A stretch of 64,000 nucleotides of DNA from an uncultured Verrucomicrobiae bacterium (GCA_963835625.1 CAWIGO010000002.1:8116-72115), one strand, 5' to 3'. Numbered from the stretch's first letter, positions 1,432-63,610 are shown. Numbers and translations: made by a program. Notes: a model not told the origin generated them from the letters alone.

Positions 1432-2979
1432 ATGCCTAAACGGACGGACATTCATTCAGTGCTCATCATCGGCGCCGGACCGATCATCATCGGGCAGGCG
1501 TGCGAGTTCGATTATTCCGGCACGCAGGCTTGCAAGGCGCTCAAAGAGGAAGGCTATCGCGTCGTTCTCGTCAACTCCAACCCGGCCACCATCATGACCG
1601 ACCCGGAGTTCGCCGACCGCACCTACATCGAGCCGATTACACCCGAGTGCGTCGAGAAAATCATCGTGCGCGAATTGGAAGAGATGAAACGGATGGGCGT
1701 GCCTGTCGGCCAATCCGCAATCCGCAATCCGCAATCCGCAATTCCACATAAACTCGTTTTGCTCCCGACGCTCGGCGGCCAGACGGCGCTGAACACGGCG
1801 ATGGCCCTCTACCGCAGCGGCGTGCTGGATAAATACGGCGTCGAGATGATTGGCGCGAATGACAAAGCCATCGAACGCGGCGAAGACCGGCAGGTTTTCA
1901 AAGACCTTATGCTCTCCATCGGCCTCGACGTTCCGATTTCCGGCACCGCGCATAACATAGAGGAAGCCCGCGCTGTGACGGACAAGATTGGACGATTTCC
2001 TGTCATCATTCGTCCGGCGTTCACGCTGGGCGGCACCGGTGGCGGCATCGCCTATAACCGCGATGAATTCGACGAACTCGCCAGGCGCGGCATGGAGCTT
2101 TCGCCCGTCAACGAAATCCTCATCGAAGAATCGCTGCTCGGCTGGAAGGAATATGAAATGGAGGTCATGCGCGACAAAGCCGACAACTGCGTCATCATCT
2201 GCTCCATCGAGAACTTCGACCCGATGGGCGTCCACACCGGCGATTCCATCACCGTCGCGCCCATCCAGACGCTGACGGACAAGGAATTCCAGATCATGCG
2301 CGACGCCAGCTTCGCGGTGATTCGCGCGGTGGGCGTCGAGACCGGCGGCTCCAACATCCAGTTTGCCGTCAACCCGGACAACGGCCGCATGGTCATCATC
2401 GAGATGAACCCGCGCGTCAGCCGCAGCTCCGCGCTGGCGTCCAAGGCAACGGGCTTTCCCATCGCAAAAATCGCCGCCAAACTCGCCGTTGGCTACCTGC
2501 TCGACGAACTCAAAAACGACATCACGCGCGAAACCCCGGCTAGCTTCGAGCCGAGCATTGATTACGTCGTCATCAAGATTCCGCGGTTTGCCTTCGAGAA
2601 ATTCGCGCAGGCCGACCCGACTCTGACAACCCAGATGAAAAGCGTGGGCGAAGCGATGGCGATTGGCCGCACGTTCAAGGAAAGCCTGCAAAAATGCCTG
2701 CGCTCGCTGGAGATTGGTCGCAGCGGTCTGGGCGGCGACGGCAAACCCTGGCGCATCGGCACGGAAGTCTATGGCGACCGCGACATCCTGCCGAAGGACG
2801 TCATCAGCCGCAAATTGAGCGTACCGAATGCCGAACGGATTTTCTTCATCCGGCATGCATTGCGGGCAGGATTCACAATTGAGGAAATCTTCCAACTGAC
2901 CAAGATTGACAGATGGTTTTTAGTCCAAATAAAAGAAATCGTGGACTTCGAAGAAGAACTCGCCACGGCTAAACACTAA
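1432..2979 (+). CDS. carB: Carbamoyl-phosphate synthase large subunit, N-terminal half only (split CarB)
   Basis: CPSase ATP-grasp motifs ([43 protein letters not shown]). Stops at residue 515 just after the [11 protein letters not shown] motif of the oligomerisation domain. Confidence 0.9.
1712..1746. repeat. 7-bp-period tandem array (AATCCGC x4 plus one degenerate unit) inside carB
   Basis: Direct reading. Translates in frame as [11 protein letters not shown]. Confidence 0.9.
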
Positions 2980-2989
2980 AATGACCGCT

Positions 2990-3079
2990 TCATTCCGCAA
3001 TCAGCTTGGCCGCTGGTTTCTGACGCAGATCAAAGAAATCGTAGATTTTGAAGAAGAGTTGGCGGCAGCGAAGAATTAG
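2990..3079 (+). repeat. Diverged second copy of the carB-N 3' terminus (encodes [22 protein letters not shown]-stop)
   Basis: Protein-level match to the carB end ([22 protein letters not shown]-stop) with the stop codon at the equivalent position. Confidence 0.85.
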
Positions 3080-3083
3080 TCAG

Positions 3084-3134
3084 GTAGGGCGCGCCACTCC
3101 GTGCGCGCCGGTGGGGCGAGCGTCCTCGCGAGCC
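3084..3134. repeat. REP-like pair: GTAGGG head plus hairpin, followed by a GTGGGG unit
   Basis: GTAGGGCGCGCCACTCCGTGCGCGCC followed by GGTGGGGCGAGCGTCCTCGCGAGCC. Confidence 0.6.
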
Positions 3135-3221
3135 GTAACTAAAATTAGGAAACTTGAAGTCACAAACTGTGACCTCAAAGGTAGTCGCAACCTGTGACCA
3201 CCTCTCAGAGAAAGGGAAAAA

Positions 3222-3777
3222 ATGAATGGGCAAATGGCGGTGGTTCCGATGGAACGAATTGAAAGGGCAATCTTCTCCATTCGCGGCGAAAAGGTGATGC
3301 TGGACAGCGATCTGGCTGAACTTTATGGGGTAGAAACGAAGGCCTTGAATCAGGCCGTCAAACGCAATGCCAATCGCTTTCCAGAAGACTTCATGTTCCA
3401 ACTCACTGCAGGTGAGGTCTTTAAGCTGAACCGGTCACAAATTGTGACCGGTTCCCAGAAGCACCGCGATCCACGTTTTCCGCCTTACGCCTTCACCGAA
3501 CATGGGGCATTGATGCTGGCTAACGTGTTGAACAGCGAGCGGGCGGCGCAAACCAGCGTTCAGGTGGTGCGTGCGTTCGTGCGGCTGACGGCAAATGCTG
3601 GCTTCCAATGCCGAATTGGCGCGGAAACTCGCGGCGGTTGAAAATAAATACGACCGACAGTTCAAAGTTGTCTTTGACGCCATCCGACAGTTAATGTCTC
3701 CACCGGAAACCAAGTGGCGCGAAATCGGATTTCATGTGAAATATGACGACGACAAGCCAAAATCAAAGAAGCGATAG
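3222..3777 (+). pseudogene. ORF6N (KilA-N-like) domain protein, frameshifted near 3590-3600
   Basis: ORFs 3222..3641 and 3595..3777 together rebuild a typical ORF6N protein (IRGEKVMLDSDLAELYGVETKALNQAVKRNANRFPEDFMFQLT ... [33 protein letters not shown]). Confidence 0.8.
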
Positions 3778-3782
3778 TGACG

Positions 3783-3810
3783 CTCAACCCTCAACCATGA
3801 ACTCTCAACC
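3783..3810. repeat. 7-bp-period tandem array (CTCAACC units)
   Basis: ctcaacc ctcaacc atgaact ctcaacc, read directly. Confidence 0.7.
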
Positions 3811-3814
3811 GACT

Positions 3815-3880
3815 TCGTTTCTGGTGCAGGTTAAAGAGATTGTGGATTTTGAGGAAGAACTGGCGGGGGCGACGAAATGA
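3815..3880 (+). repeat. Diverged third copy of the carB-N 3' terminus (encodes [21 protein letters not shown]-stop)
   Basis: Protein-level match to the carB end with the stop at the equivalent position. Confidence 0.8.
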
Positions 3881-3917
3881 AATAATCCGGCAAAACTGCA
3901 ATCTGAAAGGTAAAGCT

Positions 3918-5069
3918 ATGACTACGGATAACTATATTATGATATTCCTCGTAGCAACCTTGTTCGTCTTCGGGACATTCGCGTTGCAAATGTTTTTCAG
4001 ATGGCAGCGAGAAACGAATAAAGACCGGCACGCGGAGGAACAAGCAAGTCGAGAGCAGATGGCCGTTTTTCAGAAAATGCAACAAGAGGCTTCGGAAAGG
4101 CAATCCGCGCATTTGGCTCAAATTTTGCACAGCACGTTGAAATCACAAGAGGACCTTCAGCGTAAAGTCACAAGCCAAGAACCACGCGAAGACGCGGGCT
4201 TAAACGCAGGTGGCTACATAATTTTCGACATACCCGAAGCGAAAAAAAGCATGTTTCACGACTTACTCAAAGGTTTCGAGGATTATGCAAAACTGAGGGG
4301 ATACGTAATAAACTTTTCAATTGACAATTCTTTTTCAAACAAGGTCGCTTTCAAGTTCACATTGGATAGCAGTGGGATCGTCGTCTCGACAAAGCAGGTG
4401 CGCCAAGATTTTAAGGATTACATTGAAAAGATTCAGAGGGGAGATTCCTTGGATGATTTGCCTGTGGTTTTATCGCAAGAAGAACACGCCACCTTACTTG
4501 CTTGCATGAAAACACGGATCAACTTCTTACAGCACAATTACAACATGGAGAAGACTGAAAAGGAGTTTTATCGTCGGTTGGTAAGCGAACTACCAAAACT
4601 TGGGTTTGGAATTGCACCTCTGCAAAACTTTTTTTTGCAAGCGGGCAATTCAAACCAGGCATCCAGCTACCATGCTCTGAATTCGCCCCAAGCCGCTGTA
4701 GGGGTGGGAAACCGCCTAATTGGCAATACGATTGACCAAAGCATTTACATTGCAGATTCGTTCAACGGAAGAACTGAACAGGTTCATGCAGTGTCGGATT
4801 TATGGCTAAAGCTTTGCGATGAATGTAAAAAGCTGCCTGAAGGTAGCCCGGAACACAAAGAATGTTCAAAAGCTATAGATAACCTGCGTAAGGTTGAAAA
4901 CGAGATGAGGGAAGGCGAGCCTCCTGAGCCCAATCGAATTCACAAATGGCTTGAACAGACCAAATACGCGCTTAAAGCGTTCGGGTTGACTAAGGAAATA
5001 ATTGATGCTGGGCGAAAACTTGAAGAAGCGTTTCATCTTTCGGATTGGATCGCGCCCCTCATTTCCTGA
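3918..5069 (+). CDS. Hypothetical protein: N-terminal TM helix, charged coiled-coil segment, unknown C-terminal domain
   Basis: Long ORF in a visibly AT-richer stretch. ATG 3918 is preceded by aaagg. No recognisable motif. Confidence 0.6.
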   Translation: MTTDNYIMIFLVATLFVFGTFALQMFFRWQRETNKDRHAEEQASREQMAVFQKMQQEASERQSAHLAQILHSTLKSQEDLQRKVTSQEPREDAGLNAGGYIIFDIPEAKKSMFHDLLKGFEDYAKLRGYVINFSIDNSFSNKVAFKFTLDSSGIVVSTKQVRQDFKDYIEKIQRGDSLDDLPVVLSQEEHATLLACMKTRINFLQHNYNMEKTEKEFYRRLVSELPKLGFGIAPLQNFFLQAGNSNQASSYHALNSPQAAVGVGNRLIGNTIDQSIYIADSFNGRTEQVHAVSDLWLKLCDECKKLPEGSPEHKECSKAIDNLRKVENEMREGEPPEPNRIHKWLEQTKYALKAFGLTKEIIDAGRKLEEAFHLSDWIAPLIS

Positions 5070-5259: not shown

Positions 5260-5354
5260 TGCCCTGCCGCCGTCTCCCACTTTCCCCGTGCTGCACCCAA
5301 AACGCTTCGGTTTGAATTGAGTTATCCGCCGAGCTTCTTCATTCTGCGAATCAT

Positions 5355-6294: not shown

Positions 6295-7047
6295 TTGTGT
6301 CATCATGAAGTCGTGGCGCGACACCAATCCCATCGCGGGCCGGCTTCCAAGAACGAACAGCTCTTTGGCGCGCGTCAGCTTCCCGCGTTATGCACCGCCA
6401 TGCAAGACCTCTGCTGGCTGCTCGACCGTGGTTACGCTTCGCACTCCGCCACCGAACTCGTCGGCAACCGCCACAATCTCACCAGCCGCCAGCGCATGGC
6501 GGTGGGCCGTTGCGCCTGTTCTCTCGACGACGCGCAACATCGCCGTCGCCTTCAGCTCCAGCCTGCGGATGTCCGTGGCCGGGAACTCTGGCTGGACGGT
6601 TACAACGTGTTGACCGTGCTTGAAAGCGCGCTTGCCGGCGGCGTGGTGTTGCTGGGCCGCGACGGTTGTTGCCGCGACATCGCCGGCATTCACCGCCGTT
6701 ATCGAAAAGTGAATGAGACCGCAACCGCGCTGCGCATGGTCGGTGAAACCGCGGCGGGCTGGGGAGTGACGTGTTGCCGTTGGTGGCTGGACAAACCGGT
6801 GTCGAACAGCGGGCGGCTCAAGACGCTCATCAAGGAAATGGCCGCCAGCGCCGGTTGGAACATGCCGGTGGAACTGGTGTTCAATCCCGACCGCGTTCTG
6901 TGGGAAAGCGAACACGTCATCGCCACGTCCGACGGTGTCGTGCTGGATCGTTGCCGGCAATGGGTGAACCTGACTCGGCAAATCATCATGGAGCGCATCC
7001 CACAGGCGCGGCTGCTGAATTTGTCTTGTCCCGACGGGACAAGGTAG
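6295..7047 (+). CDS. DUF434-like conserved hypothetical protein
   Basis: HRGP...LF...L..A..DL.WLLDRGY....ELVGNRHNLTSRQRMAV pattern recalled from the DUF434 family. Start uncertain. Confidence 0.55.
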   Translation: MCHHEVVARHQSHRGPASKNEQLFGARQLPALCTAMQDLCWLLDRGYASHSATELVGNRHNLTSRQRMAVGRCACSLDDAQHRRRLQLQPADVRGRELWLDGYNVLTVLESALAGGVVLLGRDGCCRDIAGIHRRYRKVNETATALRMVGETAAGWGVTCCRWWLDKPVSNSGRLKTLIKEMAASAGWNMPVELVFNPDRVLWESEHVIATSDGVVLDRCRQWVNLTRQIIMERIPQARLLNLSCPDGTR

Positions 7048-7058
7048 TGTCTTAGTTT

Positions 7059-7113
7059 GGTAGGGACGCCTCGCCGAGGCGTCCGCGGACGGCTAGGGCC
7101 AGCCGTCCCTACC
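7059..7113. repeat. REPIN: two inverted REPs, each a GTAGGG head plus an 8-9 bp stem
   Basis: GGTAGGGACGCCTCGCCGAGGCGTCC ... GGACGGCTAGGGCCAGCCGTCCCTACC. Confidence 0.8.
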
Positions 7114-7244
7114 ACAGCAATTAGGACACTGCCTGGCACATCGTGCCAGGTTCACCGTCCTTTTAACCTCCCACCAAAGCTGGGGGTTGAGACCCGGACG
7201 GCATGTGCTAACTTGCAAGCGTGGCTCATATTCAAATTAAGATA

Positions 7245-7850: not shown

Positions 7851-7870
7851 CAGCAAGCGCGGTTTTTTTC

Positions 7871-7930
7871 GGTGGGGCGAGCGTCCCCGCGAGCCGGAAA
7901 TTTCGGTCGCCTCGGCGAGGCAACCCTACC
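7871..7930. repeat. REPIN (GTGGGG unit plus inverted GTAGGG unit)
   Basis: GGTGGGGCGAGCGTCCCCGCGAGCC ... GGTCGCCTCGGCGAGGCAACCCTACC. Confidence 0.75.
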
Positions 7931-8657: not shown

Positions 8658-8726
8658 GGGTTTTGACCAGTGTGAAAAGACCGGCGCGCCGGTTCAATGT
8701 AAATTGCGTGCAAAATGGCGTCATTT

Positions 8727-8819
8727 GTGGTTTACTGCGCGCATTCTTAATTGGCCGTCATATGGATGGCATGAATTCATTGATGGAACAGCACAAGGCC
8801 AAGCTGACCCCCGGAATCT
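8727..8819 (+). repeat. Diverged copy of the lysS 5' region (upstream leader plus first 16 codons)
   Basis: The atggatggcatgaattcattgatggaacagcacaaggccaagctgacc segment aligns to lysS 10383-10430 (40/48 identical by hand count). The upstream gatttactgcg motif is shared. Confidence 0.85.
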
Positions 8820-10303
8820 CCAGGACGTGCGAGCGCACAATCGTCTGTCTGTTGTGCCTGCTGGCGGCAATTCATGTTTTTGTTTATTCCGCCGCCTTTC
8901 CTTTTTTCAACAACGTGGATGAGCAAATCCATCTCGACTTGGTGGTGAGATACTCGCAAGCCCGCCTTCCGCGCGCGTTGGACACGCCGTGTCCGGAAGC
9001 CATGCTTTATTTCGTGATTTATAACACTCCGGAATATCTATGGCCGCCGGACACCTACCCTGGCGGACGATTTCCCGCGCCGCCGTGGATCCAGCCGTTG
9101 AACAAGGTCATGCCCATGTTGCAATCGCGGATAGCCGCGTGGCAAAGCATGAAAAATTGTGAAACCTCGCAGCCGCCACTCTATTACACGCTGGCGGGTT
9201 TGTGGTGGCGCTTGGGAAAGGTATGCGGAATTCATGACGGCTTTTTGCTCTATTGGGTCCGCTTCCTGAATGTGTTTCTCGTTGCGGTACTCGTGTGGCT
9301 GGGTTTTTTGGCCGCACGGATGGTTTTTCCGGACAACCTGTTTTTGCGGCTCGGCGTGCCGACATTGATCGCGTTCATGCCGCAAACCGCGTTTTACTCG
9401 ATTCAAAATGACGTGCTTTCACCATTGTGTTTCGGCGCGGCATTCATCTGCCTGGTGAAATTGCAGCGTGCGGAGGTGCCGGATACCCGACTCGGAACCG
9501 CCACCGGGCTGGCGCTGGCGGCCACGTTCCTGACCAAAATCAGCAACCTGCCGTTGCTGGTCATCTCGGCTTTGGTCGTTCTGTTCAAAACGTGGCGACT
9601 ATTCCGGGCTGAACAATTGCGCACGGCGGCTCCGGCCTTGTTATCGCTCGCGATTTGCGCCGGATTACCGATGGTGCTTTGGCTCGCGTGGTGCAAAATC
9701 GTCTTTGGCGATTTCACCGGCACGTCGGCCAAAATCCAATTCCTCGGCTGGACGCACAAACCGTTCGGCGAATGGTGGCACCACCCGATTTTCACGCCAC
9801 ATGGGTTGTGGACATTTGTTTCGGGACTCATGGCGACGTTGTGGCAGGGCGAGTTTTTCTGGCATCGCATGCCACTGGCTTGGCCTGCCATTGACACCGT
9901 TTACACGATTTCATCAATCGGCTTCATCGGGGTGGCCTTGGTCGCTTTGCTGCCGCGATTCACGGTTGTGACCCAACTACAGCGTCAGGCGCTTTGGCTT
10001 GGCTTCTGGTGTCTCATCGCGGCAGTCGCATTTCTCGGATTTCTGTCCCTCATTTACAATTTTCACGATTGCCTTTATCCATCGCAAGCGCATCCGTATT
10101 TCACTTCAGGACGGCTGATGCTTGGCGCACTGATTCCATTTCTGCTGCTGTTCGTGTATGGACTAGACCGGACATTAAGTTGTACGAAACGCCATTGGCC
10201 GCGGTGGCTGGCGTTGGGGGGATTTGTCCTGTTCATGCTGGTTTCGGAGATTGCCATAGACTGGCGGATTTTCCCGAATCCCTACAACTGGTTTCACATG
10301 TGA
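8762..10303 (+). CDS. Polytopic membrane protein, GT-C (ArnT/PMT-like) glycosyltransferase fold candidate, with a lysS-derived N-terminus
   Basis: About 12 predicted TM segments, with a DE..H motif in the first loop (NNVDEQIHLD). The first 16 codons, MDGMNSLMEQHKAKLT, mirror LysS MDDTNSLIEQRKAKLT. Confidence 0.65.
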   Translation: MDGMNSLMEQHKAKLTPGISRTCERTIVCLLCLLAAIHVFVYSAAFPFFNNVDEQIHLDLVVRYSQARLPRALDTPCPEAMLYFVIYNTPEYLWPPDTYPGGRFPAPPWIQPLNKVMPMLQSRIAAWQSMKNCETSQPPLYYTLAGLWWRLGKVCGIHDGFLLYWVRFLNVFLVAVLVWLGFLAARMVFPDNLFLRLGVPTLIAFMPQTAFYSIQNDVLSPLCFGAAFICLVKLQRAEVPDTRLGTATGLALAATFLTKISNLPLLVISALVVLFKTWRLFRAEQLRTAAPALLSLAICAGLPMVLWLAWCKIVFGDFTGTSAKIQFLGWTHKPFGEWWHHPIFTPHGLWTFVSGLMATLWQGEFFWHRMPLAWPAIDTVYTISSIGFIGVALVALLPRFTVVTQLQRQALWLGFWCLIAAVAFLGFLSLIYNFHDCLYPSQAHPYFTSGRLMLGALIPFLLLFVYGLDRTLSCTKRHWPRWLALGGFVLFMLVSEIAIDWRIFPNPYNWFHM

Positions 10304-10382
10304 TGCGGAACGCCATGCTGCGCCGCATCTTTTGCGTGCGAAGCGAGTTCCGGTGTGATTTACTGCGTGGACACCAATCGGT

Positions 10383-11831
10383 ATGGACGACACGAATTCA
10401 TTGATCGAACAACGCAAGGCCAAGCTGACCGCGTTGCGCGCCAAGGGCATTGACCCGTTCAAAAATAAATTCACGCCCGGCGAAACCTGCGAGCATGCGC
10501 GCGACCATTACGCCGAAGGCCGTGAAGTCGCCATTGCCGGTCGCATTACCGCGCACCGCGAGATGGGCAAAAGCATGTTCATTGACGTGCGCGACCAGAG
10601 CGGACGCATCCAGGCTTACGCGCAGAAAAATGTCCTCGGCGACGAGCAATTCGACATCTTCCGGCATCTCGACCTCGGTGATTTCATCGGCGCACGTGGA
10701 CATTTGTTCACAACCAAAACCGGTGAAATTTCCATCAAGCTCGCCAGCTTCACGATTCTGGCCAAGGCGTTGCGTCCGCCACCGGCGAAATGGTATGGAC
10801 TTGAAGACACGGAAATCCGTTACCGCCAACGTTATCTCGATTTGATGGCGAATCCAGAAGTGAAGGATGTTTTTTTCAAGCGCAGCCAAATCATCGCCGA
10901 GATCCGGAATTTTCTACATTCGCGCGGCTTTGTGGAAGTCGAGACACCGATGATGCAGGCGATTCCCGGCGGCGCGGCGGCGCAACCGTTCAAGACGCAT
11001 CACAACGCACTCGGCTGCGATTTTTATCTGCGCATTGCGCTGGAACTTTACCTTAAGCGTCTGCTTGTCGGCGGTGTGGACAAGGTTTTCGAGATTGGCC
11101 GCATCTTCCGCAACGAAGGTTTTTCGCGCAAACACAATCCCGAATTCACGATGTTGGAACTCTATCAGGCCTACGGCGATTACGAGAGCATGATGGAACT
11201 CATGCAAGGCATGGTCTGCCACGTTGCGCAAAAAGTTTTGGGCACGCTGAAAATCGAAACCAAAGACGCCGGGGGCAAGGTCACCAAAACAATTGATCTC
11301 ACGCCGAACTGGAAGCGTGTGAAATACAAGGATCTTGTGCGTGGAAAAGCGGGCGCGGATTGGTTTGACGTTTCACCAAAGGAACGGCACGAGCGCGCAA
11401 TCAAACTCGGCGCAGAGATTGCGAAGGACTACGAAGATTTTGAAGTCACACAGGCCGTATTCGAGAAGCTGATTGAACCAACACTTATCAATCCGACGTT
11501 TGTGACACACGCGCCGAAGGAATTGATTCCACTCGCCAAACTTTCACCCGACGATCCGACGACCGTCGAAGTTTTTGAGTGCTGCATCAACGGCCAGGAA
11601 ATCGCGCCTGCTTACACCGAACAGAACGACCCGATTGAGCAGCGCGAACGGCTGGAGCATCAGGCCGGCGGCGAGCAGCAAAAGCTGGATGAAGATTTTC
11701 TTGTCGCGCTCGAACATGGCATGCCTCCGGCGGGTGGCATGGGCGTGGGCATTGACCGTTTGTGCATGATGCTGCTCGGTCAGGAAAGCATCCGCGACGT
11801 GATTTTATTCCCGCAGTTGAAGCCAAAATAA
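10383..11831 (+). CDS. lysS: Lysine--tRNA ligase (class II)
   Basis: 482 aa with class II motifs ([33 protein letters not shown]). Confidence 0.95.
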   Translation: MDDTNSLIEQRKAKLTALRAKGIDPFKNKFTPGETCEHARDHYAEGREVAIAGRITAHREMGKSMFIDVRDQSGRIQAYAQKNVLGDEQFDIFRHLDLGDFIGARGHLFTTKTGEISIKLASFTILAKALRPPPAKWYGLEDTEIRYRQRYLDLMANPEVKDVFFKRSQIIAEIRNFLHSRGFVEVETPMMQAIPGGAAAQPFKTHHNALGCDFYLRIALELYLKRLLVGGVDKVFEIGRIFRNEGFSRKHNPEFTMLELYQAYGDYESMMELMQGMVCHVAQKVLGTLKIETKDAGGKVTKTIDLTPNWKRVKYKDLVRGKAGADWFDVSPKERHERAIKLGAEIAKDYEDFEVTQAVFEKLIEPTLINPTFVTHAPKELIPLAKLSPDDPTTVEVFECCINGQEIAPAYTEQNDPIEQRERLEHQAGGEQQKLDEDFLVALEHGMPPAGGMGVGIDRLCMMLLGQESIRDVILFPQLKPK

Positions 11832-11842: not shown

Positions 11843-12499
11843 TCAATCTTCCAACCATTCAATAATTTCGTGATCTCTACGCATATCAAATTTGGCGTAA
11901 TCTTCTCTTGAAGCATCGAATCCGTATTTCAAATGATACATAAGTGATTTTCCGTCTTCCGGATCATGTTTAAAACACACCTCATACCAAACTGTTTGCA
12001 AATTAAATTGCTGATGGAATACGTTCATAATTCCACGAATGAGTGCAAGCGCAGCTGTGATTTCTGAAAATTGAATCGTTGGCAAAGGGATTTCCTTCAT
12101 CTGCCTTAAGAGGTCGTTGTGCGCTATTTTCTCGTCACGCCAAGTTTTGACGGCTTTCATTTTCCCTTTGAGTGCTAAAATCTGTTGTGACACCTGACTT
12201 TGCAGACTTGCATCTTTAATTTCTAACACGAGATTATCAAACGACAGATTTTCTTTGACGATTGATTTAACTTTTGTTTTAGGTGGGTCTGTCAGCCTAG
12301 CGATGGAAAGAAGAATATCAAACAGCATTAAATTCCAGAGGTAGCCGAAAAATACTGGCGCTGTTTCATTCAACAATTTCACCTTCCTATCGCTGCCAAA
12401 AACCTGTTTGAAGTGTTTCCACTTGTAGTGCAATCGCACCACTTCAGCGTCAATGGCTTTGATCTTATTTTTAAGTGTGTCTGGCATATTGGCGGCCAC
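11843..12499 (-). CDS. HEPN-domain protein, AbiU2-like
   Basis: 218 aa, helical, with an R-x5-H motif (WRDEKIAHND). AT-rich. Overlaps the upstream GIY-YIG gene by 29 nt. Confidence 0.55.
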   Translation of the reverse strand: MAANMPDTLKNKIKAIDAEVVRLHYKWKHFKQVFGSDRKVKLLNETAPVFFGYLWNLMLFDILLSIARLTDPPKTKVKSIVKENLSFDNLVLEIKDASLQSQVSQQILALKGKMKAVKTWRDEKIAHNDLLRQMKEIPLPTIQFSEITAALALIRGIMNVFHQQFNLQTVWYEVCFKHDPEDGKSLMYHLKYGFDASREDYAKFDMRRDHEIIEWLED

Positions 12500-13310
12500 G
12501 TTTTAGAGTTACGCCCAAACGTCGTAGGCGACTCGATATGCCATGATGGTCTATGTTAAACAACCGCCCGATTTCGCGGCACGATTTGCCTTCTGAATGT
12601 AATTTTAGACAGGCCTGATCCATTTCTTCTGCACTATTAAAACCTAAAGATTTTCTGTTAAATTTTTCAAAATAGATTTTTCGAAGCCCTGCGGTTCTCG
12701 ATGGTAACTTTCTAATTTTATCCAAAAGCTGAACCAGCGGGTTGTAAATTTCTGGACGTTTGAGGGCTGCTGTAAAACCAGCTATGCGCTTGGCTTCATT
12801 TTCCGGCGAATGCAACCATTTTTGCGCGTTCTTTCTCCATTCTGGATTTTTTGCATGACGTTGTTTCAGTGCTTCAGAAACTCGCTTGTGAGTGTCAGGC
12901 GTCCATACGCCTCTGCGATACCCACGAATTTTCTTCTTCTGTGATTCGGTCCATTTGTAACCGCGGGTTGATTCTGCTTTTGGCGCAGAATTGAAGTTTC
13001 TCGTGTAAGCATGGAAATGATCCATCCAGAATTGTTCCCGTTCATCTAACCGTTTGCTCTCGCCAACCTTTTCCAACAAAATAGCTGTGAAAGCTCCTTG
13101 GCCATATTTGTTCCATGCTCTTTGCAAATGTCTTGAGTGATGTCGTTTTGCTAGAAGCGCCCGTAAATGCTGGTTGAGCCGCTTCCGAACAATTTTCGAG
13201 CTGCCAACATAGATTCTGCCACTGGCATCGTGCCGGATGCCATAAACGCCACAACATTGGAAATCAATTGATAAGCGATTGTTGAATATGCTTTCAATTA
13301 TTCCGAGCAT
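12471..13310 (-). CDS. GIY-YIG homing-type endonuclease (I-TevI/Seg-like architecture with a C-terminal HTH)
   Basis: GVYGI...RIYVGSS, conserved R (KRLNQHLR), E (REQFWMDHF), and a C-terminal HTH (SCREIGRLFNIDHHGISSRLRRLG). Confidence 0.8.
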   Translation of the reverse strand: MLGIIESIFNNRLSIDFQCCGVYGIRHDASGRIYVGSSKIVRKRLNQHLRALLAKRHHSRHLQRAWNKYGQGAFTAILLEKVGESKRLDEREQFWMDHFHAYTRNFNSAPKAESTRGYKWTESQKKKIRGYRRGVWTPDTHKRVSEALKQRHAKNPEWRKNAQKWLHSPENEAKRIAGFTAALKRPEIYNPLVQLLDKIRKLPSRTAGLRKIYFEKFNRKSLGFNSAEEMDQACLKLHSEGKSCREIGRLFNIDHHGISSRLRRLGVTLKRGRQYARHT

Positions 13311-13323
13311 GGTAGAAGTTTAA

Positions 13324-13482
<159 letters not shown>

Positions 13483-13556
13483 TGTAGGACAGGCATCTTG
13501 CCTGTCTCCATTATTTGAAATATGAAGTTAGAGACAGGCTGGAAGCCTGTTCTACA
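13483..13556. repeat. REPIN (GTAGGACAGGC-hairpin and inverted GTAGAACAGGC-hairpin)
   Basis: TGTAGGACAGGCATCTTGCCTGTCTC ... GAGACAGGCTGGAAGCCTGTTCTACA. Confidence 0.8.
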
Positions 13557-14147: not shown

Positions 14148-14622
14148 GGCTGGAGGCGGGAGACATGGATTTCTCGATTTCTTCATGGAAACCGAGGGTG
14201 AGGCGTTGCATTTCGGCGAGGTAACGGCGGCCTTGTTCCGGCGGCATGGCCTGGCTGACGGCGATGAAATGCCGGAGCATTTGCGCCTGGCATTGGGCGC
14301 GGAGTTCGCCGAGTTCGGTCAGTTTCTTTTGCGCGTCGGCGGTGACATTGGTGCCATTGGCCAGCACCGCTTGAACTTCGGATTTCTTCGCGGCGAGAAG
14401 CGCGCACATTTTTGCGCATTGCGGCATGTATCCCTCATGCAATTGCCGGATGCGCGCCATTTCGGCGGCATTCAGATGAAATTCATCATGCAACCAGCTC
14501 AAATCGTCCGCCGGATTCGCCATGCCCATCACACAAGCCCGCTGGCTGACAAAGTATGAGCCTGCGAAAACCGCCACGCCCAAGGCCAGTGCGCCCAACA
14601 CGATGATCAGCGAGCGGTTCAT
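14128..14622 (-). CDS. Periplasmic heavy-metal sensor, Spy/CpxP/CnrX-like, with a His-rich C-terminus
   Basis: N-terminal TM, all-helical body, C-terminal SHEHHQH. Sits between a small TM protein gene and the ECF sigma gene. Confidence 0.55.
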   Translation of the reverse strand: MNRSLIIVLGALALGVAVFAGSYFVSQRACVMGMANPADDLSWLHDEFHLNAAEMARIRQLHEGYMPQCAKMCALLAAKKSEVQAVLANGTNVTADAQKKLTELGELRAQCQAQMLRHFIAVSQAMPPEQGRRYLAEMQRLTLGFHEEIEKSMSPASSHEHHQH

Positions 14623-53396: not shown

Positions 53397-54230
53397 ATGC
53401 GGGAACTTCTGGCCACGCGCGGGATTCAGTTGACGAAATCCCTCGGCCAGAATTTTCTGCACGACGGCAATCAACTTCGGCGCATCATTGAGGCGGCGGA
53501 ATTAAAAAAGACGGACAAAGTCCTTGAAATCGGGCCGGGACTTGGGCCGCTCACCGAATTGCTTTTGGAAAGAGCGGGTGAGGTTTTGGCCATTGAAAAG
53601 GACGCGCGGCTGGTGCAATTTTTGCGCGAGCGATTTTCCAACCCGCAATCCGTAATCCGCAATCCGCCATTGCATTTGCTCCACGCCGACGCGCTTGAAT
53701 TCCTGCGTCGTGAGCCGCGCGACTGGAGCGATTGGAAGCTCGTGGCCAATCTGCCGTATTCCGTCGCTTCGCCGATTTTGGTGGAACTGGCGCAATCGCG
53801 CGGGCGACCGGAACGGATGGTCGCAACGCTGCAACTCGAAGTCGCGCGGCGGCTCACGGCCAAAGCCGGCGATGCGGATTACGGCGTGTTCACGTTGCTG
53901 ATTCAACTCGACTATGAATCCCGAAAGACTTCGGGATTCAAGATTCCGGCAAGTTGCTTTTTCCCGGAGCCGGACGTGGATTCAGCATGTGTGGTTTTGA
54001 TTCGCCGCGCCACGCCGCTTTTGCCCGAAAGCCAGCGTGCGGCGTTTGTGAAAATTGTGAAACGGGCGTTTTCGCAGCGGCGTAAAATGATGCTGAAACT
54101 GCTGCGCGAAGACTGGCTGGCGGAGAAATTGGAGCGGGCGTTTGAAGACTTACAGCTTTCGTCACAAGTGCGCGCGGAAGCGGTGAGCTTGGAGCAGTTT
54201 ATTGAGTTAACTCAAATATTGGCGGAGTAG
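53397..54230 (+). CDS. rsmA: 16S rRNA (adenine1518/1519-N6)-dimethyltransferase
   Basis: KSLGQNFL, EIGPGLGPLT, NLPYSVASP motifs. Confidence 0.92.
   Translation: MRELLATRGIQLTKSLGQNFLHDGNQLRRIIEAAELKKTDKVLEIGPGLGPLTELLLERAGEVLAIEKDARLVQFLRERFSNPQSVIRNPPLHLLHADALEFLRREPRDWSDWKLVANLPYSVASPILVELAQSRGRPERMVATLQLEVARRLTAKAGDADYGVFTLLIQLDYESRKTSGFKIPASCFFPEPDVDSACVVLIRRATPLLPESQRAAFVKIVKRAFSQRRKMMLKLLREDWLAEKLERAFEDLQLSSQVRAEAVSLEQFIELTQILAE
53640..53667. repeat. 7-bp-period tandem array (AATCCGC-type, 4 units) inside rsmA
   Basis: aacccgc aatccgt aatccgc aatccgc. In frame as NPQSVIRNP. Confidence 0.85.
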
Positions 54231-59531: not shown

Positions 59532-62435
59532 ATGGACTATAAAAACACATTGAATTTGCCGCGCACCGATTTCCCAATGAGGGCCGATTTGGTGGCGCGC
59601 GAGCCTGAACGGTTGAAAAAGTGGGGGGCGGCGAGGCTTTACGAAAAAATCCAGGCTGACCACGCCAATGTGAAGGAAAAGTTTGTCCTGCACGATGGTC
59701 CGCCGTTTGCCAACGGCGACGTGCACATCGGCACCGCGCTGAACAAGATTCTCAAGGATATCATCGTCAAATACAAGACCTTGCGTGGCTTCAGCACGCC
59801 CTACATTCCGGGTTGGGATTGCCACGGATTGCCCATCGAATTCAAGGTTTCACAGGAGATGCGGAAAGGCCAGAAGTCAGAAGTCGGAAGTCAGAAGCCG
59901 GATCCCGATCGATTTTCGCCGTCCGCGATTCGCAAAGCTTGCGAAGCTTACGCCCGCAAGTTCATTGACATCCAGCGAACTCAATTCAAACGGCTCGGCG
60001 TGCTCGGCGATTGGGACAATCCCTATCTCACATTCAATAAAGAATACGAGGCCGACGAACTGCGCCTGTTCGCCGACATCGTTGAAAAGGGTTTTATCTA
60101 TCGCGGCAAAAAGCCGGTTTACTGGAGCATCCCTTGCCACACCGCGCTGGCTGAAGCCGAGGTCGAATATCAAGACCACGTTAGCCCCAGCATCTATGTA
60201 AAATTTCCGGTCGTCGGCCAGTCAAAAACTTTTATCCTGATCTGGACGACCACTCCATGGACTCTGCCGGCGAATCTCGCGGTGGCTTACAATTCGAAGT
60301 TCCAATACGTGAAGGTCCGCGTCGGCGATGAAAATTACATTCTGTTCCGCGGTCTGCTGGCCGCTGTCGCGGGAAAATGCGGTTGGAGCAATTGCAAAGA
60401 ACAACCGTTTCCAACCAAAAAGCTTGCTGTGCTGCAGTTTCAGCATCCATTCTGTAGTCGCACTGGCAGGTTTTATCCCGCTGACTTTGTTGCCAGCGAC
60501 ACTGGCACGGGCTTCGTCCATATCGCACCGGGACACGGCTTGGAGGACTATCAACTCGGCTCATCTGTCGGTCTGCCGATTTATTCGCCGGTGGATGATG
60601 ATGGTAAGTTCATGCACACGAACGATTTGCCCGTTGAGCAACAGATGCCGTCAGAGATGGTTGGCAAATCCATCCTCGAAAAACATGGCAAGAGCGATGC
60701 GAACGAAGCAGTGCTACATGAACTGCGCGTTCGTAAGGCGCTGTTGCACCAGGAAGATTATCACCACAGCTATCCGCATTGCTGGCGCAGCAAAACGCCA
60801 ATCATTTTCCGCGCAATGGATCAATGGTTCATCGAAATTGACCATGAGAAATTCCGTGACCGTGCTCTGGCAGAAATTGACCGCGTGAACTGGATTCCCG
60901 ATTGGAGCGTCAATCGAATTAAAAGTGCCGTGCAAACTCGTCCCGACTGGTGCATCTCGCGCCAGCGCACTTGGGGTGTGCCGATTCCCGCGTTCTACGA
61001 TGCGAAAGGAAATCCGATTCTCGATGCACAAATTGTTCGCAACGCGGCTGATTTGATTGAAAAGCATGGTTCAAATATCTGGTTCGAAAAATCCGCTGCG
61101 GAACTTTGGTCGCTGGTGAAACCGAAGAATTGGAATGGACCAGAAGCCGTCACCAAATCCAACGACACATTGGATGTGTGGATCGATTCGGGAAGTTCGT
61201 CGCGAAGTGTGCTGATGCGGCGGACGGAACTCCATCATGAGGTAGGGCGCGCTGTCCCCAGCGCGCCGCGGCGCAGTGAGAACACTGCGCCCTACCAGGC
61301 TTGGCAAGCCGACATTTATTTCGAAGGCTCCGACCAGCATCGCGGCTGGTTTCAATCGTCACTGCTGCTGTCACTCGCGGGCAACGGGGCCGCGCCGTTT
61401 AAGACGGTGCTTACGCACGGATTCATGGTGGATGCCGACCGCGAAAAGATTTCCAAGAGCAAACAAAGCCAGGGCGGCTACGAAAAACCGCAGACATCCG
61501 AAGCCTATGTGAAGAAATGGGGCGCGGATATTGTGCGCCTGTGGGTTTCGTCGCAGGATTTTCGCAACGACATCATTGTGAGCGAGGAGCGCATCAACAA
61601 GGTGGCCGAGACCTACCGCGTCATCCGCAACGCGCTGCGTTATCAACTTTCGAACCTTTACGACTTCGATCCGGCAAAACACACCGTGCCGGACGACAAG
61701 CTCACCGGTCTCGACCGCTGGATTCTCGGCGAATTCTCGAAACTGGAGCGGGAAGTCATCGAGGCTTACGATAAATACGAATTTCACGTCGTCTATCAGG
61801 AGGTCAGCCAGTTCATTGCTGTTGAGTTGTCCTCGATTTACCACGACGTCATCAAAGACCGGCTTTACACCGACCCGGCGAATTCGCATCGCCGCCGCTC
61901 GACGCAGACGGCGTTGCACCGGCTCGTGACCGGCCTGTGCCAGATGCTCGCGCCGGTTCTGGCGTTCACGGCAGACGAAGCGTGGGAGTTTGTGCCGGGG
62001 AAAAAGGTGAATTCCGTTCATAAAGCGAATTGGAAACTAATTAAATTCTCGCTGACGGGATCTGAAATAGAAGATTGGGAATATTTATTCGTAGCGCGCG
62101 AAATCTGGTTGCCAATGTTGGAACAGAAACGTCGCGACAAAACTATCGGGAAATCTCTGGACGCTAAAATCCGACCTGTAACCGAACAAATGCCAGAATT
62201 GGCAAATAGCGAAAAACTTCAAGACACATTCAAAGAGTTGTTGAATGTTTCGCAGCTTGAATTTTTATCTTACAAAGGCAATCCAGAAGCCGATTTTACA
62301 GGCAAATTAGTCGTTCATGCTGATGGGCAAAAATGCGAGCGTTGTTGGCATTGGGAAACCGATATCGGTCAGAACAAGGAACATCCGACGCTTTGCGGTC
62401 GTTGTGTCGAGGCGGTGATTCAATTTAAGACGTAA
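59532..62435 (+). CDS. ileS: Isoleucine--tRNA ligase
   Basis: HDGPPFANGDVHIGT (HIGH), KISKSK (KMSKS), EGSDQHRGWF, C-terminal Cys cluster CERCWH...CGRC. Confidence 0.96.
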   Translation: MDYKNTLNLPRTDFPMRADLVAREPERLKKWGAARLYEKIQADHANVKEKFVLHDGPPFANGDVHIGTALNKILKDIIVKYKTLRGFSTPYIPGWDCHGLPIEFKVSQEMRKGQKSEVGSQKPDPDRFSPSAIRKACEAYARKFIDIQRTQFKRLGVLGDWDNPYLTFNKEYEADELRLFADIVEKGFIYRGKKPVYWSIPCHTALAEAEVEYQDHVSPSIYVKFPVVGQSKTFILIWTTTPWTLPANLAVAYNSKFQYVKVRVGDENYILFRGLLAAVAGKCGWSNCKEQPFPTKKLAVLQFQHPFCSRTGRFYPADFVASDTGTGFVHIAPGHGLEDYQLGSSVGLPIYSPVDDDGKFMHTNDLPVEQQMPSEMVGKSILEKHGKSDANEAVLHELRVRKALLHQEDYHHSYPHCWRSKTPIIFRAMDQWFIEIDHEKFRDRALAEIDRVNWIPDWSVNRIKSAVQTRPDWCISRQRTWGVPIPAFYDAKGNPILDAQIVRNAADLIEKHGSNIWFEKSAAELWSLVKPKNWNGPEAVTKSNDTLDVWIDSGSSSRSVLMRRTELHHEVGRAVPSAPRRSENTAPYQAWQADIYFEGSDQHRGWFQSSLLLSLAGNGAAPFKTVLTHGFMVDADREKISKSKQSQGGYEKPQTSEAYVKKWGADIVRLWVSSQDFRNDIIVSEERINKVAETYRVIRNALRYQLSNLYDFDPAKHTVPDDKLTGLDRWILGEFSKLEREVIEAYDKYEFHVVYQEVSQFIAVELSSIYHDVIKDRLYTDPANSHRRRSTQTALHRLVTGLCQMLAPVLAFTADEAWEFVPGKKVNSVHKANWKLIKFSLTGSEIEDWEYLFVAREIWLPMLEQKRRDKTIGKSLDAKIRPVTEQMPELANSEKLQDTFKELLNVSQLEFLSYKGNPEADFTGKLVVHADGQKCERCWHWETDIGQNKEHPTLCGRCVEAVIQFKT
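59872..59899. repeat. 7-bp-period tandem array (AGAAGTC-type, 4 units) inside ileS
   Basis: agaagtc agaagtc ggaagtc agaagcc. In frame as QKSEVGSQK. Confidence 0.85.
61241..61296. repeat. REPIN inserted in frame within ileS
   Basis: GGTAGGGCGCGCTGTCCCCAGCGCGCC + GCGGCGCAGTGAGAACACTGCGCCCTACC. Terminal GGTAGGGCGC/GCGCCCTACC inverted repeat and two internal hairpins. Translates as EVGRAVPSAPRRSENTAPYQ. Confidence 0.85.
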
Positions 62436-62455
62436 AAAGAAAATGCAAAATCCAA

Positions 62456-63313
62456 TTACGCATACAGTCCGTCAACCTGCAACAACGCTAGTTGCGGTGG
62501 CAACCATTCGCTGCCAAGCAATTTGGCGTTCTTACTTTCGTTGCACTGTCCACATGACATGCAAATATTTTCTGGGGAATGCGACCCGCCACGAGCTAAA
62601 GCTACGATGTGTTCAACGTGCATGTTCTTTGTCAAAAACCTCTTGGCACAATATGCACAATCGGCGTGCCTATGTGACAGCATTTGAATGATTTTAAGAT
62701 CGGCGGCTTTAATTTGTTCGGGCGTGCTGTTTTTATATTTGCGGGCGCGGCGGCGATGCCCTTTGGCGCGCACCTTGTCGGGATTGTTAGCCGCCCACCT
62801 TGCGTTAATTATTTTCTTAAAATCTCGGTTTTCAGACCGCCATTTCGCCGAATATTTGACGTTTCTTTCAGGGTGTTGTTTATTCCATTCTTGAATTCTG
62901 GATAGCACCTGATTCCTATTTTTAAGATAATATTTTTTGACAGAGGCTATCTTCTGCCGCCTTACTTCGAGATAATGTTTTGCATCGTATATTTTCTTCC
63001 GCTTGTTATTTTCAGGGTGGGCAGCTTTATACGTCGGCCATTTCGCTAAAATCGCGCCGCGATTTTTGGCATACCACGCCGCGTTTGTGGCTTTGCGCCT
63101 TTCCTTATTTTCCGCCCGCCATTTCGCATCAGCGGCTTTTTTTCGCTCCTTATTTTCACTGACCCATTTCCGGTTACTTGATCTCTCACGATCCTTGTTT
63201 TCGAGATAACGCTTTATCCTATTTGCTTTCTGCGTTGCCCGATTATTTGCATACCATCTTACTTGATAGTCTTTCTGCTTTTTTCTTTGTTCGGGCGAGA
63301 GGATACGTTTCAC
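62456..63313 (-). CDS. HNH endonuclease with a long N-terminal array of ~15-aa basic (W/Y)xxxN repeats
   Basis: HNH core HVEHIVALARGGSHSPENICMSCGQCNESK. About 10 repeat units such as WVSENKERKKAADAK and WRAENKERRKATNAA. AT-rich. Convergent with ileS. Confidence 0.8.
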   Translation of the reverse strand: MKRILSPEQRKKQKDYQVRWYANNRATQKANRIKRYLENKDRERSSNRKWVSENKERKKAADAKWRAENKERRKATNAAWYAKNRGAILAKWPTYKAAHPENNKRKKIYDAKHYLEVRRQKIASVKKYYLKNRNQVLSRIQEWNKQHPERNVKYSAKWRSENRDFKKIINARWAANNPDKVRAKGHRRRARKYKNSTPEQIKAADLKIIQMLSHRHADCAYCAKRFLTKNMHVEHIVALARGGSHSPENICMSCGQCNESKNAKLLGSEWLPPQLALLQVDGLYA

Positions 63314-63399
63314 AATTTTGACTTTGCGCCGGGCAAAAATTTTGTCCAGAAAAAATCACACCGGCTGCTGCTGCGTGAGGCGTGCAACGAACCGACAAC

Positions 63400-63560
63400 A
63401 AACCAAGCCCCGTCAGGGGCGACATATTTGTAGAAATCGCATCCCAAAACATTTCCAAGCTCCGTCAGGAGCGGCATATTCCGTTCGCCACCAGACGATG
63501 CCGCTTCTGACGGAGCTTGGGATTTCTACAAAACGCAAAACTACAAATATGCCGCGCCTA
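63400..63560. repeat. MITE-like hairpin repeats (CCGTCAGGAGCGGCATAT family)
   Basis: ccaagctccgtcaggagcggcat (63451-) and atgccgcttctgacggagcttgg (-63517) form an inverted repeat. Related half-sites lie at about 63400-63440 and 63535-63560. Confidence 0.6.
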
Positions 63561-63565
63561 CGGCG

Positions 63566-63610
63566 CTTTGCGGCCGTTGTGTCAAAGCAGTAAAACGGTT
63601 CAAGGCATAA
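63566..63610 (+). pseudogene. Diverged second copy of the ileS 3' terminus
   Basis: Encodes (PTA)LCGRCVKAVKRFKA-stop against (HPT)LCGRCVEAVIQFKT-stop at 62391-62435. About 33/45 nt identical by hand count, with the stop aligned. Confidence 0.6.

Follow-up and report, generated by a model that had tools for sequence, protein, structure and literature searches.

Diverged copies of gene ends around cargo in a verrucomicrobial genome: probable scars of gene-end replacement

How does the end of a conserved gene come to be present twice on a chromosome, with unrelated genes between the two copies and no recombinase gene nearby? The question is raised by a stretch of 64,000 nucleotides (nt) from an uncultured Verrucomicrobiae bacterium (GCA_963835625.1, CAWIGO010000002.1:8116-72115), referred to below as the window. 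In it, the 3′ ends of carB-N, lysS and ileS, the 5′ end of lysS, and the end of a GFO/IDH/MocA-family oxidoreductase gene together with the first half of the adjoining tRNA-Leu gene all recur as diverged direct repeats. We favor the view that these repeats are scars of gene-end replacement, in which DNA from another lineage supplies a gene with a new terminus and displaces the old one, and that at the 3′ ends of lysS and ileS the process was driven by a nuclease. Coordinates count from the first letter of the window, and genes and gene ends lie on its plus strand unless stated. Loci fetched from relatives are given L-numbers, L001–L080 being representative lysS loci.

The five repeat sets are the top direct-repeat families of the window, and all of them were recovered by a repeat finder and by self-BLASTN. 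Most are significant in self-BLASTN. Because the ileS pair (75% identity over 51 nt) is too short for that test, an internal null was built from the window genes: the last 15 codons plus stop of 48 genes were compared with the 3 kb downstream on the same strand. The scores were 71 for lysS, 61 for the oxidoreductase gene, 59 for carB-N, and 56 for ileS, with the stop codon aligned in all four, as against a best score of 21 for the other 44 genes and a median of 14. In the matching 5′ control, lysS ranks first (52 vs. 40). A preliminary description of this DNA had listed the five gene-end duplications; all are present where it placed them, one copy does leave the gene intact while the other is a detached remnant, and they are not transposition target-site duplications, as it had argued. 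As to whether such duplications are commoner than chance would allow, the window control is clear; an automated scan for gene-end repeats gave 6.4–8.6 per Mb in all locus sets, verrucomicrobial and diverse alike (the scan is crude and dominated by paralogues and antisense frames).

The lysS gene (10332-11831; Pfam tRNA-synt_2 and anticodon-binding OB fold) is intact, has its own leader, and is the target of two of the five loci. Its 3′ terminus in use (11692-11831) is followed by a HEPN_AbiU2 gene (11843-12499, minus strand; Pfam 1.3e-19), seemingly a passenger, and by a free-standing GIY-YIG homing endonuclease gene that is convergent with lysS (12471-13310, minus strand; Pfam GIY-YIG 1.6e-10). 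Next come the conserved right end of the element (13311-13342; CATGGTAGAAGTTTAAGAATTGAAC.TGGAATT.AAAGTT) and a displaced lysS 3′ remnant of 46 codons and a stop (13343-13482), found by the repeat finder and BLASTN, with its stop aligned to that of the gene. The pair (11692-11830 / 13343-13481) is 93.5% identical over 139 nt (self-BLASTN, E = 2e-54), and the codon differences inside the homology are seven synonymous and one nonsynonymous. Directly 3′ of the remnant stands the native terminator hairpin (13483-13556), which resembles a repetitive extragenic palindrome (REP) and is kept in L082, where the lysS remnant is 94.8% identical to that of the window.

The GIY-YIG protein matches homing-endonuclease families in PHROGs (1e-21) and PADLOC, and its homologues form a tight family (60–87% identity). 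In every context retrieved, from five metagenome look-ups, the gene lies tail-to-tail with the 3′ end of an aminoacyl-tRNA synthetase gene: lysS in L082–L084 and L087/L088, and a gltX-type gene in L081 and L089–L092. Among GTDB representative genomes the family has one distant match only. The pairing with HEPN_AbiU2 recurs in L081 and L089–L092, and some GIY-YIG contexts are without it. The two-gene module occupies 11843-13310 in the window, 4552-6075 in L081, and 5001-6549 in L089, where it is flush with the gltX stop and the last 30 gltX codons are AT-rich (G+C content at third codon positions, GC3, of 0.40).

The order lysS, GIY-YIG gene, remnant is found in at least five independent assemblies, namely L082, L083, and L084 (three Joint Genome Institute [JGI] samples), L087 (an NCBI metagenome-assembled genome, MAG), and L088 (JGI). 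As L082 and L087 stem from different samples and projects, the architecture is not an assembly artifact. The lysS end of L082 is present four times, as the copy in use, a 376-nt remnant, and two shorter remnants, with DUF4268 and DUF433 genes between them; L087 has two nested remnants. Over the last 138 nt, the lysS termini in use in L082 and L087 have a GC3 of 0.41–0.43 and are 90% identical to each other, and the remnants have a GC3 of 0.78–0.83. The L082 remnant is 86.7% identical to the window lysS, much as the 5′ part of the gene is (87.3%), and the L082 terminus in use is only 76% identical. Judged by composition and identity, the terminus in use in L082 and L087 is foreign and the remnant is native. 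Upstream of the duplicated 376 nt, the AT-rich tract of L082 continues for more than 1 kb, which fits a homologous crossover at a variable upstream point. The lysS genes of L082 (5995-7917) and L087 (5995-7794) also have in-frame catalytic-domain insertions, some 120–160 amino acids (aa) in total, which probably came with the element because they lie inside the AT-rich foreign tract.

One and the same right-end sequence adjoins the lysS remnant in five contigs (the window, L082, L083, L084, and L087). The remnant that follows it starts at −376 nt in L082, L083, and L087 and at −140 nt in the window, and it has an internal deletion in L084. The window start is consistent with a deletion at a short TTTC repeat, and, to judge by eye, the remnant deletions (TTTC, GAAG) and the REP/ileS junction may plausibly have involved microhomology. 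We infer a single ancestral right junction of the GIY-YIG element, after which the remnants came to differ only by microhomology deletions. L082 and L083 encode an identical GIY-YIG protein, yet the L083 remnant holds a diverged mosaic patch, as is expected if the remnant acts as a right-hand recombination arm. The GIY-YIG nuclease is the likely driver at this locus.

At ileS (59532-62435; assigned by Pfam), the terminus in use is followed by a free-standing HNH endonuclease gene, again convergent with its target (62456-63313, minus strand; Pfam HNH and HNH_5), and then by a displaced 3′ remnant (63561-63610, ending in LCGRCVKAVKRFKA and the stop). The aligned copies (62386-62436 / 63561-63611) differ by four synonymous and six nonsynonymous codon changes, and a REP-like palindrome (63405-63568) ends within the remnant, of which it covers the first ∼8 nt. 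The last ∼450–600 nt of ileS form an AT-rich tract common to L093: in the window GC3 is 0.33–0.57 over the last 150 codons against 0.47–0.90 upstream (0.67–0.90 in the eight windows before the drop), and in L093, which has the HNH gene at the same place, the last ∼150 codons are AT-rich as well. The HNH gene is 96–100% identical in nucleotides between the window and L093, the genome background being ∼80–88%, and the adjoining ∼450 nt of ileS (61832-62289) is 86–99% identical. Identity so far above background in the HNH gene, together with the raised ileS flank, points to horizontal movement. The next HNH homologue (57%) lies beside a phage portal gene. Here the HNH nuclease is the likely driver.

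Detached ileS C-termini, longer than that of the window, occur in three of 80 verrucomicrobial ileS loci (L271, L299, and L306), with different cargo across the three: a Sel1 protein with a PemK toxin, two proteins without assignment, and small membrane proteins. REP-like palindromes lie at or near cassette junctions of the window (7042-7134, 13483-13556, and 63405-63568), as does a repeated 30-mer (beginning CGGTGGGGCGAGCGTCC; 3109-3138 / 7870-7899). Copies of the palindrome or 30-mer are found in L095 and L098 too, and the end of the 63405-63568 palindrome, which encodes NYKYAAPTAL, reappears within the L271 cargo.

The other three loci have no nuclease. The carB-N gene (1432-2979; Pfam CPSase_L_D1/D2/D3) belongs to a naturally split carB and encodes the N-terminal half of the carbamoyl-phosphate synthase large subunit (515 aa); it ends inside the oligomerization domain, and there is no carB-C half in the window. 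The split is native to the lineage: carB-N stops at the same residue, with a single terminus, in three relatives (L095, L096, and L098), which are empty sites. In the window the terminus is present three times. Copy 1, the one in use (2903-2979), is AT-rich, with a GC3 of 0.50 over the last 30 codons against 0.63–0.97 upstream. Copy 2 (2996-3079) and copy 3 (3804-3880) are displaced remnants with aligned stops, 78% identical over 60 nt (self-BLASTN), of which copy 3 would be the oldest. Between them lies an ORF6N/ORF6C-like gene (3222-3777; Pfam ORF6N 1.4e-32; PADLOC PDC-S05 and PHROG anti-repressor families) that is split by a frameshift, its C-terminal part being in another frame (3595-3777). 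L095 has a copy-2-type terminus, flank, and ORF6N gene orthologous to those of the window and lacks copy 1, which by this comparison and its composition appears foreign. As only 16 nt separate copies 1 and 2, there is no cargo between them, and copy 1 resembles the product of a terminus replacement that either came without cargo or later lost it by deletion. A low-GC open reading frame (ORF) 3′ of copy 3 (3915-5069; GC 0.41–0.47 vs. ∼0.58 in the flanks) is possibly older cargo; it has no match in Pfam, PADLOC, or PHROGs. The carB-N gene also contains a simple repeat that encodes 11 residues in frame (∼1700-1750) and is absent from L095; a 37-nt copy of it, 89% identical, lies at 53638-53674.

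At the 5′ end of lysS the topology is a mirror image. A detached lysS leader with codons 1–16 (8704-8809, by alignment to 10332-10430) is fused in frame to a gene for a DUF2142-family membrane protein (8810-10303; Pfam DUF2142), the cargo of this locus. The coding repeat (8761-8809 / 10382-10430) is 88% identical over 49 nt (E = 6e-10), with two synonymous and four nonsynonymous codon differences, and the leader repeat (8704-8739 / 10332-10367) emerges in a gapped alignment. The window DUF2142 gene lacks its own first ∼10 codons; in relatives the gene sits after ABM and Fe-ADH genes and its product starts MQNGVNAADS. With 2528 homologues this is a large, conserved verrucomicrobial family and therefore not a sporadic one. 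In L082, SelR is directly upstream of lysS and there is no DUF2142 or YebC gene there.

The fifth locus involves the oxidoreductase gene (25498-26643; Pfam; 78–93% protein identity to 80 relatives) and the tRNA-Leu downstream of it. The first repeat copy, R1 (26558-26738, by BLASTN and alignment), comprises the oxidoreductase terminus in use, a spacer that contains a promoter-like motif, and positions 1–40 of tRNA-Leu, a dead 5′ half with four substitutions that breaks off in the anticodon loop (ATTCAG|). After 355 nt of cargo (26739-27092, plus strand), containing a 62-codon ORF without family match (26892-27080), R2 (27093-27316) repeats the terminus in decayed form, with indels and a frameshift (stop aligned), then the spacer and an intact tRNA-Leu(CAG) (27232-27316; ARAGORN and Rfam). 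The pair 26599-26738 / 27132-27271 is 83% identical over 140 nt (E = 6e-35), and with indels the homology reaches 26558 / 27093. Each copy is conserved solely in its functional part. The cargo is absent from seven relatives with an empty arrangement (L195, L202, L219, L225, L231, L238, and L251), in which the order is stop codon, ∼70-nt spacer with the promoter-like motif, tRNA, and aroQ; many other relatives have unrelated inserts at this site. Dead tRNA-Leu 5′ halves (positions 1–40) occur in L188, L180, and L245 too. L188 has a perfect 100-nt repeat (6341-6440 / 8842-8941; 60 nt upstream plus tRNA-Leu positions 1–40) around 2.4 kb of cargo that includes a gene for a 514-aa membrane protein and no integrase. 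The latter protein and the window DUF2142 protein have no significant similarity, and we rejected the idea of a cargo family common to 5′-type cassettes.

The source lineage is a Limisphaerales-type verrucomicrobium of soil or peat. The species representatives closest to the window LysS are at most 79% identical in protein (L001, 79%), and the window oxidoreductase is 93% identical to that of peat and soil MAGs. A look-up of the exact window LysS sequence gave no record, and hence no further assembly of this strain. Detached lysS fragments were absent from the 80 representative lysS loci listed, a set that leaves out the closest relatives; lysS remnants are present in L082, L087, L198, L225, and L238, the last three having surfaced by chance in the gene-end repeat scan. 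By inspection, clear remnants with an aligned stop belong to Verrucomicrobiota, with a single exception of 40 nt, itself doubtful, in a Kiritimatiellaeota locus (L060). Empty sites, which the preliminary description had proposed to look for in relatives, exist for lysS, carB-N, and tRNA-Leu. Its view that the targets are the ends of essential genes was too narrow: the oxidoreductase gene is hit in the window, and in L095 the 3′ end of an esterase gene is doubled (2426-2520 / 3919-4013, minus-strand genes; 91.6% over 95 nt) around an NHL-repeat protein cargo. Because the esterase is nonessential, the pattern is not confined to essential genes.

Several of these loci share two further traits. 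Remnants start at −105, −90, −66, and −48 nt for ileS and at −376, −143, −140, −65, −47, −41, and −36 nt for lysS, and such scatter speaks against a fixed att core. Terminal tracts that are AT-rich and of varying length are present in the window ileS and carB-N, in L082, L087, L093, and L299, and in the gltX of L089; foreign tracts run from ∼90 nt to more than 1 kb, and arrays reach three remnants in L082, two in L087, and three carB-N copies in the window.

The sequence of events that we propose is as follows. DNA of another lineage would recombine homologously within the conserved gene, at a variable upstream point, and bring its own gene end plus whatever lay beyond it in the donor. The far end of the incoming DNA would then join the recipient non-homologously, inside the native gene end, so that the gene stays intact with a foreign terminus and the native terminus is pushed beyond the cargo. 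The displaced terminus would decay by substitutions and microhomology deletions, and with each further event an array of remnants would grow, the newest insertion lying closest to the gene. At lysS 3′ and ileS 3′ we suppose that the nuclease cuts a naive allele near the future junction, the remnant start marking the region of the break, and that repair copies the donor terminus together with the nuclease gene, for which the mosaic identity and composition described above provide support. The recoded terminus and the truncated remnant would both be immune to recutting, and the remnant could act as the right-hand homology arm with which the cassette homes into any genome with the gene, irrespective of what follows it. 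Both the one conserved right junction and the mosaic L083 remnant fit such an arm function. At carB-N, lysS 5′, and oxidoreductase/tRNA-Leu, the nuclease may have been lost, or one-sided homologous recombination combined with illegitimate recombination may have acted without any dedicated enzyme. These three loci have the same topology, and probably another driver.

Against gene-end replacement by nucleases stand several observations, the first being that three of the five window loci (carB-N, lysS 5′, and tRNA-Leu) have no nuclease. In the window, GC3 does not fall in the lysS terminus in use, which is 93.5% identical to its remnant, so that either of the two may be the foreign one; compared with the L082 remnant, the two copies are 91% and 93–95% identical over ∼135 nt, too close for the native one to be assigned. 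The final ∼140 nt of ileS (62290-62428) is ∼78% identical to L093, with 20 synonymous and six nonsynonymous codon differences, between flanks that are 97–100% identical. Simple co-conversion does not predict this patch, which may be the nuclease target or immunity region, or the product of a secondary conversion. L093 has the HNH gene and no ileS remnant, the gltX-associated GIY-YIG modules (L089 included) have no detectable gltX remnant, and none of the three ileS cassettes of GTDB relatives (L271, L299, and L306) has a nuclease. The tRNA-Leu break after ATTCAG, in the anticodon loop, is the same in four genomes (the window, L188, L180, and L245). Finally, a trans-acting recombinase may be encoded outside the 64 kb, to which our recombinase search in this genome extended.

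As to the elements of this reading that the preliminary description had put forward, an origin of the second copy in another lineage is borne out in several cases, the window lysS 3′ pair being the one that does not tell which copy is foreign. Differences that are mostly synonymous are seen at lysS 3′; they are not the rule at ileS or lysS 5′, and the oxidoreductase remnant is frameshifted. The cargo identities it gave were confirmed by Pfam, PHROGs, and PADLOC, with the qualifications that carB-N copies 1 and 2 have no cargo between them and that the DUF2142 family is not sporadic.

Among the other explanations, a speculative one goes further than gene-end replacement. In Limisphaerales-type Verrucomicrobia, a duplicated gene end may constitute a portable pair of homology arms (the terminus in use on the left, the remnant on the right), between which any cargo could be moved by ordinary recombination into other genomes with that gene, regardless of their downstream sequence, perhaps boosted in cis or in trans by resident homing endonucleases. 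On this view, recombinase-free platforms for gene capture would exist at the ends of lysS, ileS, carB-N, and tRNA-Leu. We consider this a doubtful generalization, though one worth stating, and if it is true, gene-end platforms would collect defense, toxin, and accessory genes in ordered arrays, an integron-like function performed by host recombination only.

The loci might alternatively be decayed site-specific integrative elements, which used a tyrosine or serine integrase and an attP site embedding a gene end or tRNA half, the integrase having later been deleted or acting in trans, and successive integrations having produced the arrays. Cis-mobilizable elements do accrete at the 3′ end of fda in Streptococcus thermophilus, and the nested arrays of L082 and L087 resemble such accretion. 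A break in the anticodon loop is a tyrosine-integrase signature, and at this one locus its fixed position is what speaks most strongly for an integrase; the tRNA-Leu case may thus be integrase-mediated instead. The perfect 100-nt repeat of L188 and a classical repeat of a tRNA 3′ fragment in L238 point the same way, and the genome was inspected over 64 kb only. The L238 repeat (5272-5295 / 6657-6680), which is 24 nt of the tRNA-Leu 3′ end beyond an intact tRNA, is a classical att-type signature, unlike the 5′-half duplications. On the other side, Pfam identified no integrase, transposase, or reverse transcriptase across the ∼58 window ORFs (whose content is ordinary housekeeping, efflux, and envelope functions), and there were no recombinase genes in the L082 and L087 neighborhoods (precomputed Pfam) or in the cargo of relatives, that of L188 and L180 included. 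The lysS and ileS remnant starts spread over 36–376 nt, repeats of 140–376 nt are long for att sites, and the foreign tract reaches a variable 90 to more than 1000 nt upstream, as a homologous crossover leaves it. Integrases that target tRNA genes usually restore the 3′ part of the tRNA; the duplication here of the 5′ half with 140 nt of upstream sequence is atypical. For the set as a whole we judge integrative elements unlikely.

Less likely still is Campbell-type insertion, the first model of the preliminary description, in which a small circle carrying one homology segment plus cargo, itself generated by recombination between such repeats in a previous host, enters by a single RecA-dependent crossover. 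The resulting topology would be identical, with direct repeats around the cargo; repeats of 100–376 nt with 80–100% identity are adequate RecA substrates, and the perfect repeat of L188 could be a recent event between near-identical strains. A single crossover should, however, leave both copies chimeric, whereas in L082 and L087 all 376 nt in use are foreign and the remnant resembles the host from its very start, and a circle carrying the repeat only cannot explain a foreign tract that begins >1 kb upstream of the duplicated segment in L082. The origin of the first duplication and the cargo-free pair of carB-N copies 1 and 2 are also left unexplained.

We see little prospect for an account without horizontal transfer, in which a segment with the gene end was duplicated locally and its copies then diverged in situ. 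All 17% of divergence at oxidoreductase/tRNA-Leu could be decay after duplication, and the L188 repeat is still 100% identical, but the cargo is missing in empty-site relatives and its composition is unlike that of the host, the seven synonymous and one nonsynonymous differences at lysS 3′ fit purifying selection on both copies, and the termini in use are compositionally foreign and common to different hosts. Least credible of all is an assembly chimera in which diverged alleles of co-existing strains were joined head to tail by the assembler: the window does look like a metagenome contig, and three of the five junction sets (carB-N copies 1 and 2, lysS 5′, and tRNA-Leu) lack an independent assembly, but the lysS order recurs across projects as noted, the ileS–HNH junction is present in L093, comparable remnants turn up in several GTDB MAGs, in part on contigs of Mb scale, and the remnants show decay by frameshift and deletions. 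The GIY-YIG cargo junction is conserved across independent assemblies.

Some other known arrangements were considered and set aside. A group I or II intron or an intein housing the nucleases is ruled out, as the sole Rfam match in the window is tRNA-Leu(CAG), with no group I or II intron ribozyme around the nuclease genes, and the termini in use end in their own stops. Integron gene cassettes do not fit because there is no intI integrase and no shared attC-like junction motif, and because the boundaries are copies of gene ends. The preliminary description had reported neither a recombinase gene in the window nor an att/attC-like motif common to the junctions, and both statements stand: comparison across the five window loci revealed no shared motif.

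From the lack of a recombinase it had concluded that the mechanism is undescribed. That conclusion is not supported: two homing-type nucleases are themselves mobility enzymes, and the architecture is known from fungal mitochondria, where mobile ORFs (free-standing LAGLIDADG or GIY-YIG genes) make gene hybrids with C-terminal duplication (PMC3630166). Examples include atp6 in Allomyces and atp6, atp9, cox2, and nad3 in Glomus (PMC3630166), and cob and atp6 in Endoconidiophora (PMC6279837). The resemblance lies in the order of gene body, inserted foreign C-terminus, endonuclease ORF, and displaced native C*-terminus; in an inserted terminus that has diverged largely at synonymous sites and a native remnant that matches close relatives; and in a sporadic distribution and the GIY-YIG family itself. 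What we found agrees on several points: nucleases of the right families without an intron at lysS 3′ and ileS 3′, an in-frame terminus with a displaced native end, and sporadic occurrence with empty alleles. The inserted terminus is recognizable as foreign in the lysS of L082 and L087, the window ileS, and carB-N copy 1, the exception being the window lysS 3′ end. The bacterial case differs in its chromosomal setting and aminoacyl-tRNA synthetase targets, in a nuclease that is convergent with its target (theirs is in phase) and with which HEPN_AbiU2 travels along, in arrays of up to three remnants, and in the occurrence of the same topology without a nuclease, at a 5′ end, and at a tRNA.

A second relative is the displacement of C-termini, with arrays of orphan ends, at rhs, cdiA, and the effector-immunity clusters of the Vibrio cholerae type VI secretion system (T6SS), which is attributed to homology-facilitated illegitimate recombination (PMC5361080, citing Jackson 2009, Poole 2011, and Koskiniemi 2014). 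There too the 5′ part is constant, homology-anchored incoming DNA replaces the 3′ end without a recombinase, and the old 3′ ends shift downstream with neighboring genes and accumulate newest first. A constant 5′ part, a variable foreign 3′ tract, and stacked older ends are all present in our loci. The replaced ends of Rhs and T6SS proteins, however, are different toxins under diversifying selection, whereas here the same conserved housekeeping sequence is replaced and what is new is the cargo that comes to lie between the copies.

Islands that use an integrase at tRNA or gene 3′ ends and restore the target through their att direct repeats, including integrase-less cis-mobilizable derivatives, likewise have direct repeats flanking cargo, a functional target, and possible tandem accretion, and the tRNA-Leu break in the anticodon loop is shared with them; unlike them, our loci have no integrase that we could find, long and variable repeats, a variable homologous conversion tract upstream, and a duplicated tRNA 5′ half with its promoter region. 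In fractured genes, an essential gene is in two halves with a free-standing homing endonuclease gene between them, and a split intein rejoins the halves (PMC2677866). These share with the present case a free-standing nuclease gene in an essential bacterial gene, the lack of an intron or contiguous intein, and a compensating device, which there is protein trans-splicing and here is a duplicate gene end with its own stop.

Our full-text literature search, the coverage of which is incomplete, turned up no description of such an arrangement at housekeeping genes of bacteria. The fungal mitochondrial mobile ORF is the described kind that comes closest, and among bacteria it is C-terminal displacement at polymorphic toxin loci. 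What we describe is not a new mechanism; new here are the aminoacyl-tRNA synthetase targets, the GIY-YIG plus HEPN_AbiU2 module, and the nested remnant arrays. Nor is a single systematic mechanism for all five loci, as had been suggested, the better account; there are probably several, given that the lysS and ileS remnant starts are scattered and the tRNA-Leu break is fixed.

Two features of the window lie apart from the duplicated ends. A cusA-type RND (resistance-nodulation-division) transporter gene is split into overlapping ORFs (21099-21620 / 21568-24366; Pfam ACR_tran 1–155, then 156 onward) by a frameshift, from sequencing error or as a pseudogene. It belongs to a block of ∼11 kb (13563-24366) with a sigma-70/anti-sigma pair, a porin, and Cus-type efflux, between lysS and the lpxD–oxidoreductase genes; as lysS and lpxD–oxidoreductase are direct neighbors in both L225 and L238, the block may represent an independent insertion of metal-resistance genes.

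To our knowledge, the free-standing homing endonucleases of bacteria have been described chiefly in phages, introns, and inteins. The nucleases described here appear to occupy the essential genes lysS, ileS, and gltX by supplying a replacement gene end, which would be a third way of doing so beside self-splicing elements and fractured genes, and the existence of the same solution in fungal mitochondria would make the arrangement convergent. The pairing of GIY-YIG with HEPN_AbiU2 suggests that homing may spread defense or toxin genes between species, or that the toxin stabilizes the nuclease. Such loci yield short pseudo-ORFs and mosaic essential genes, which can mislead aminoacyl-tRNA synthetase phylogenies, annotation, and binning. 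At the same time, detached gene ends with aligned stops are easily searched markers, in which both the order of past insertions and the allele that preceded the invasion are preserved.

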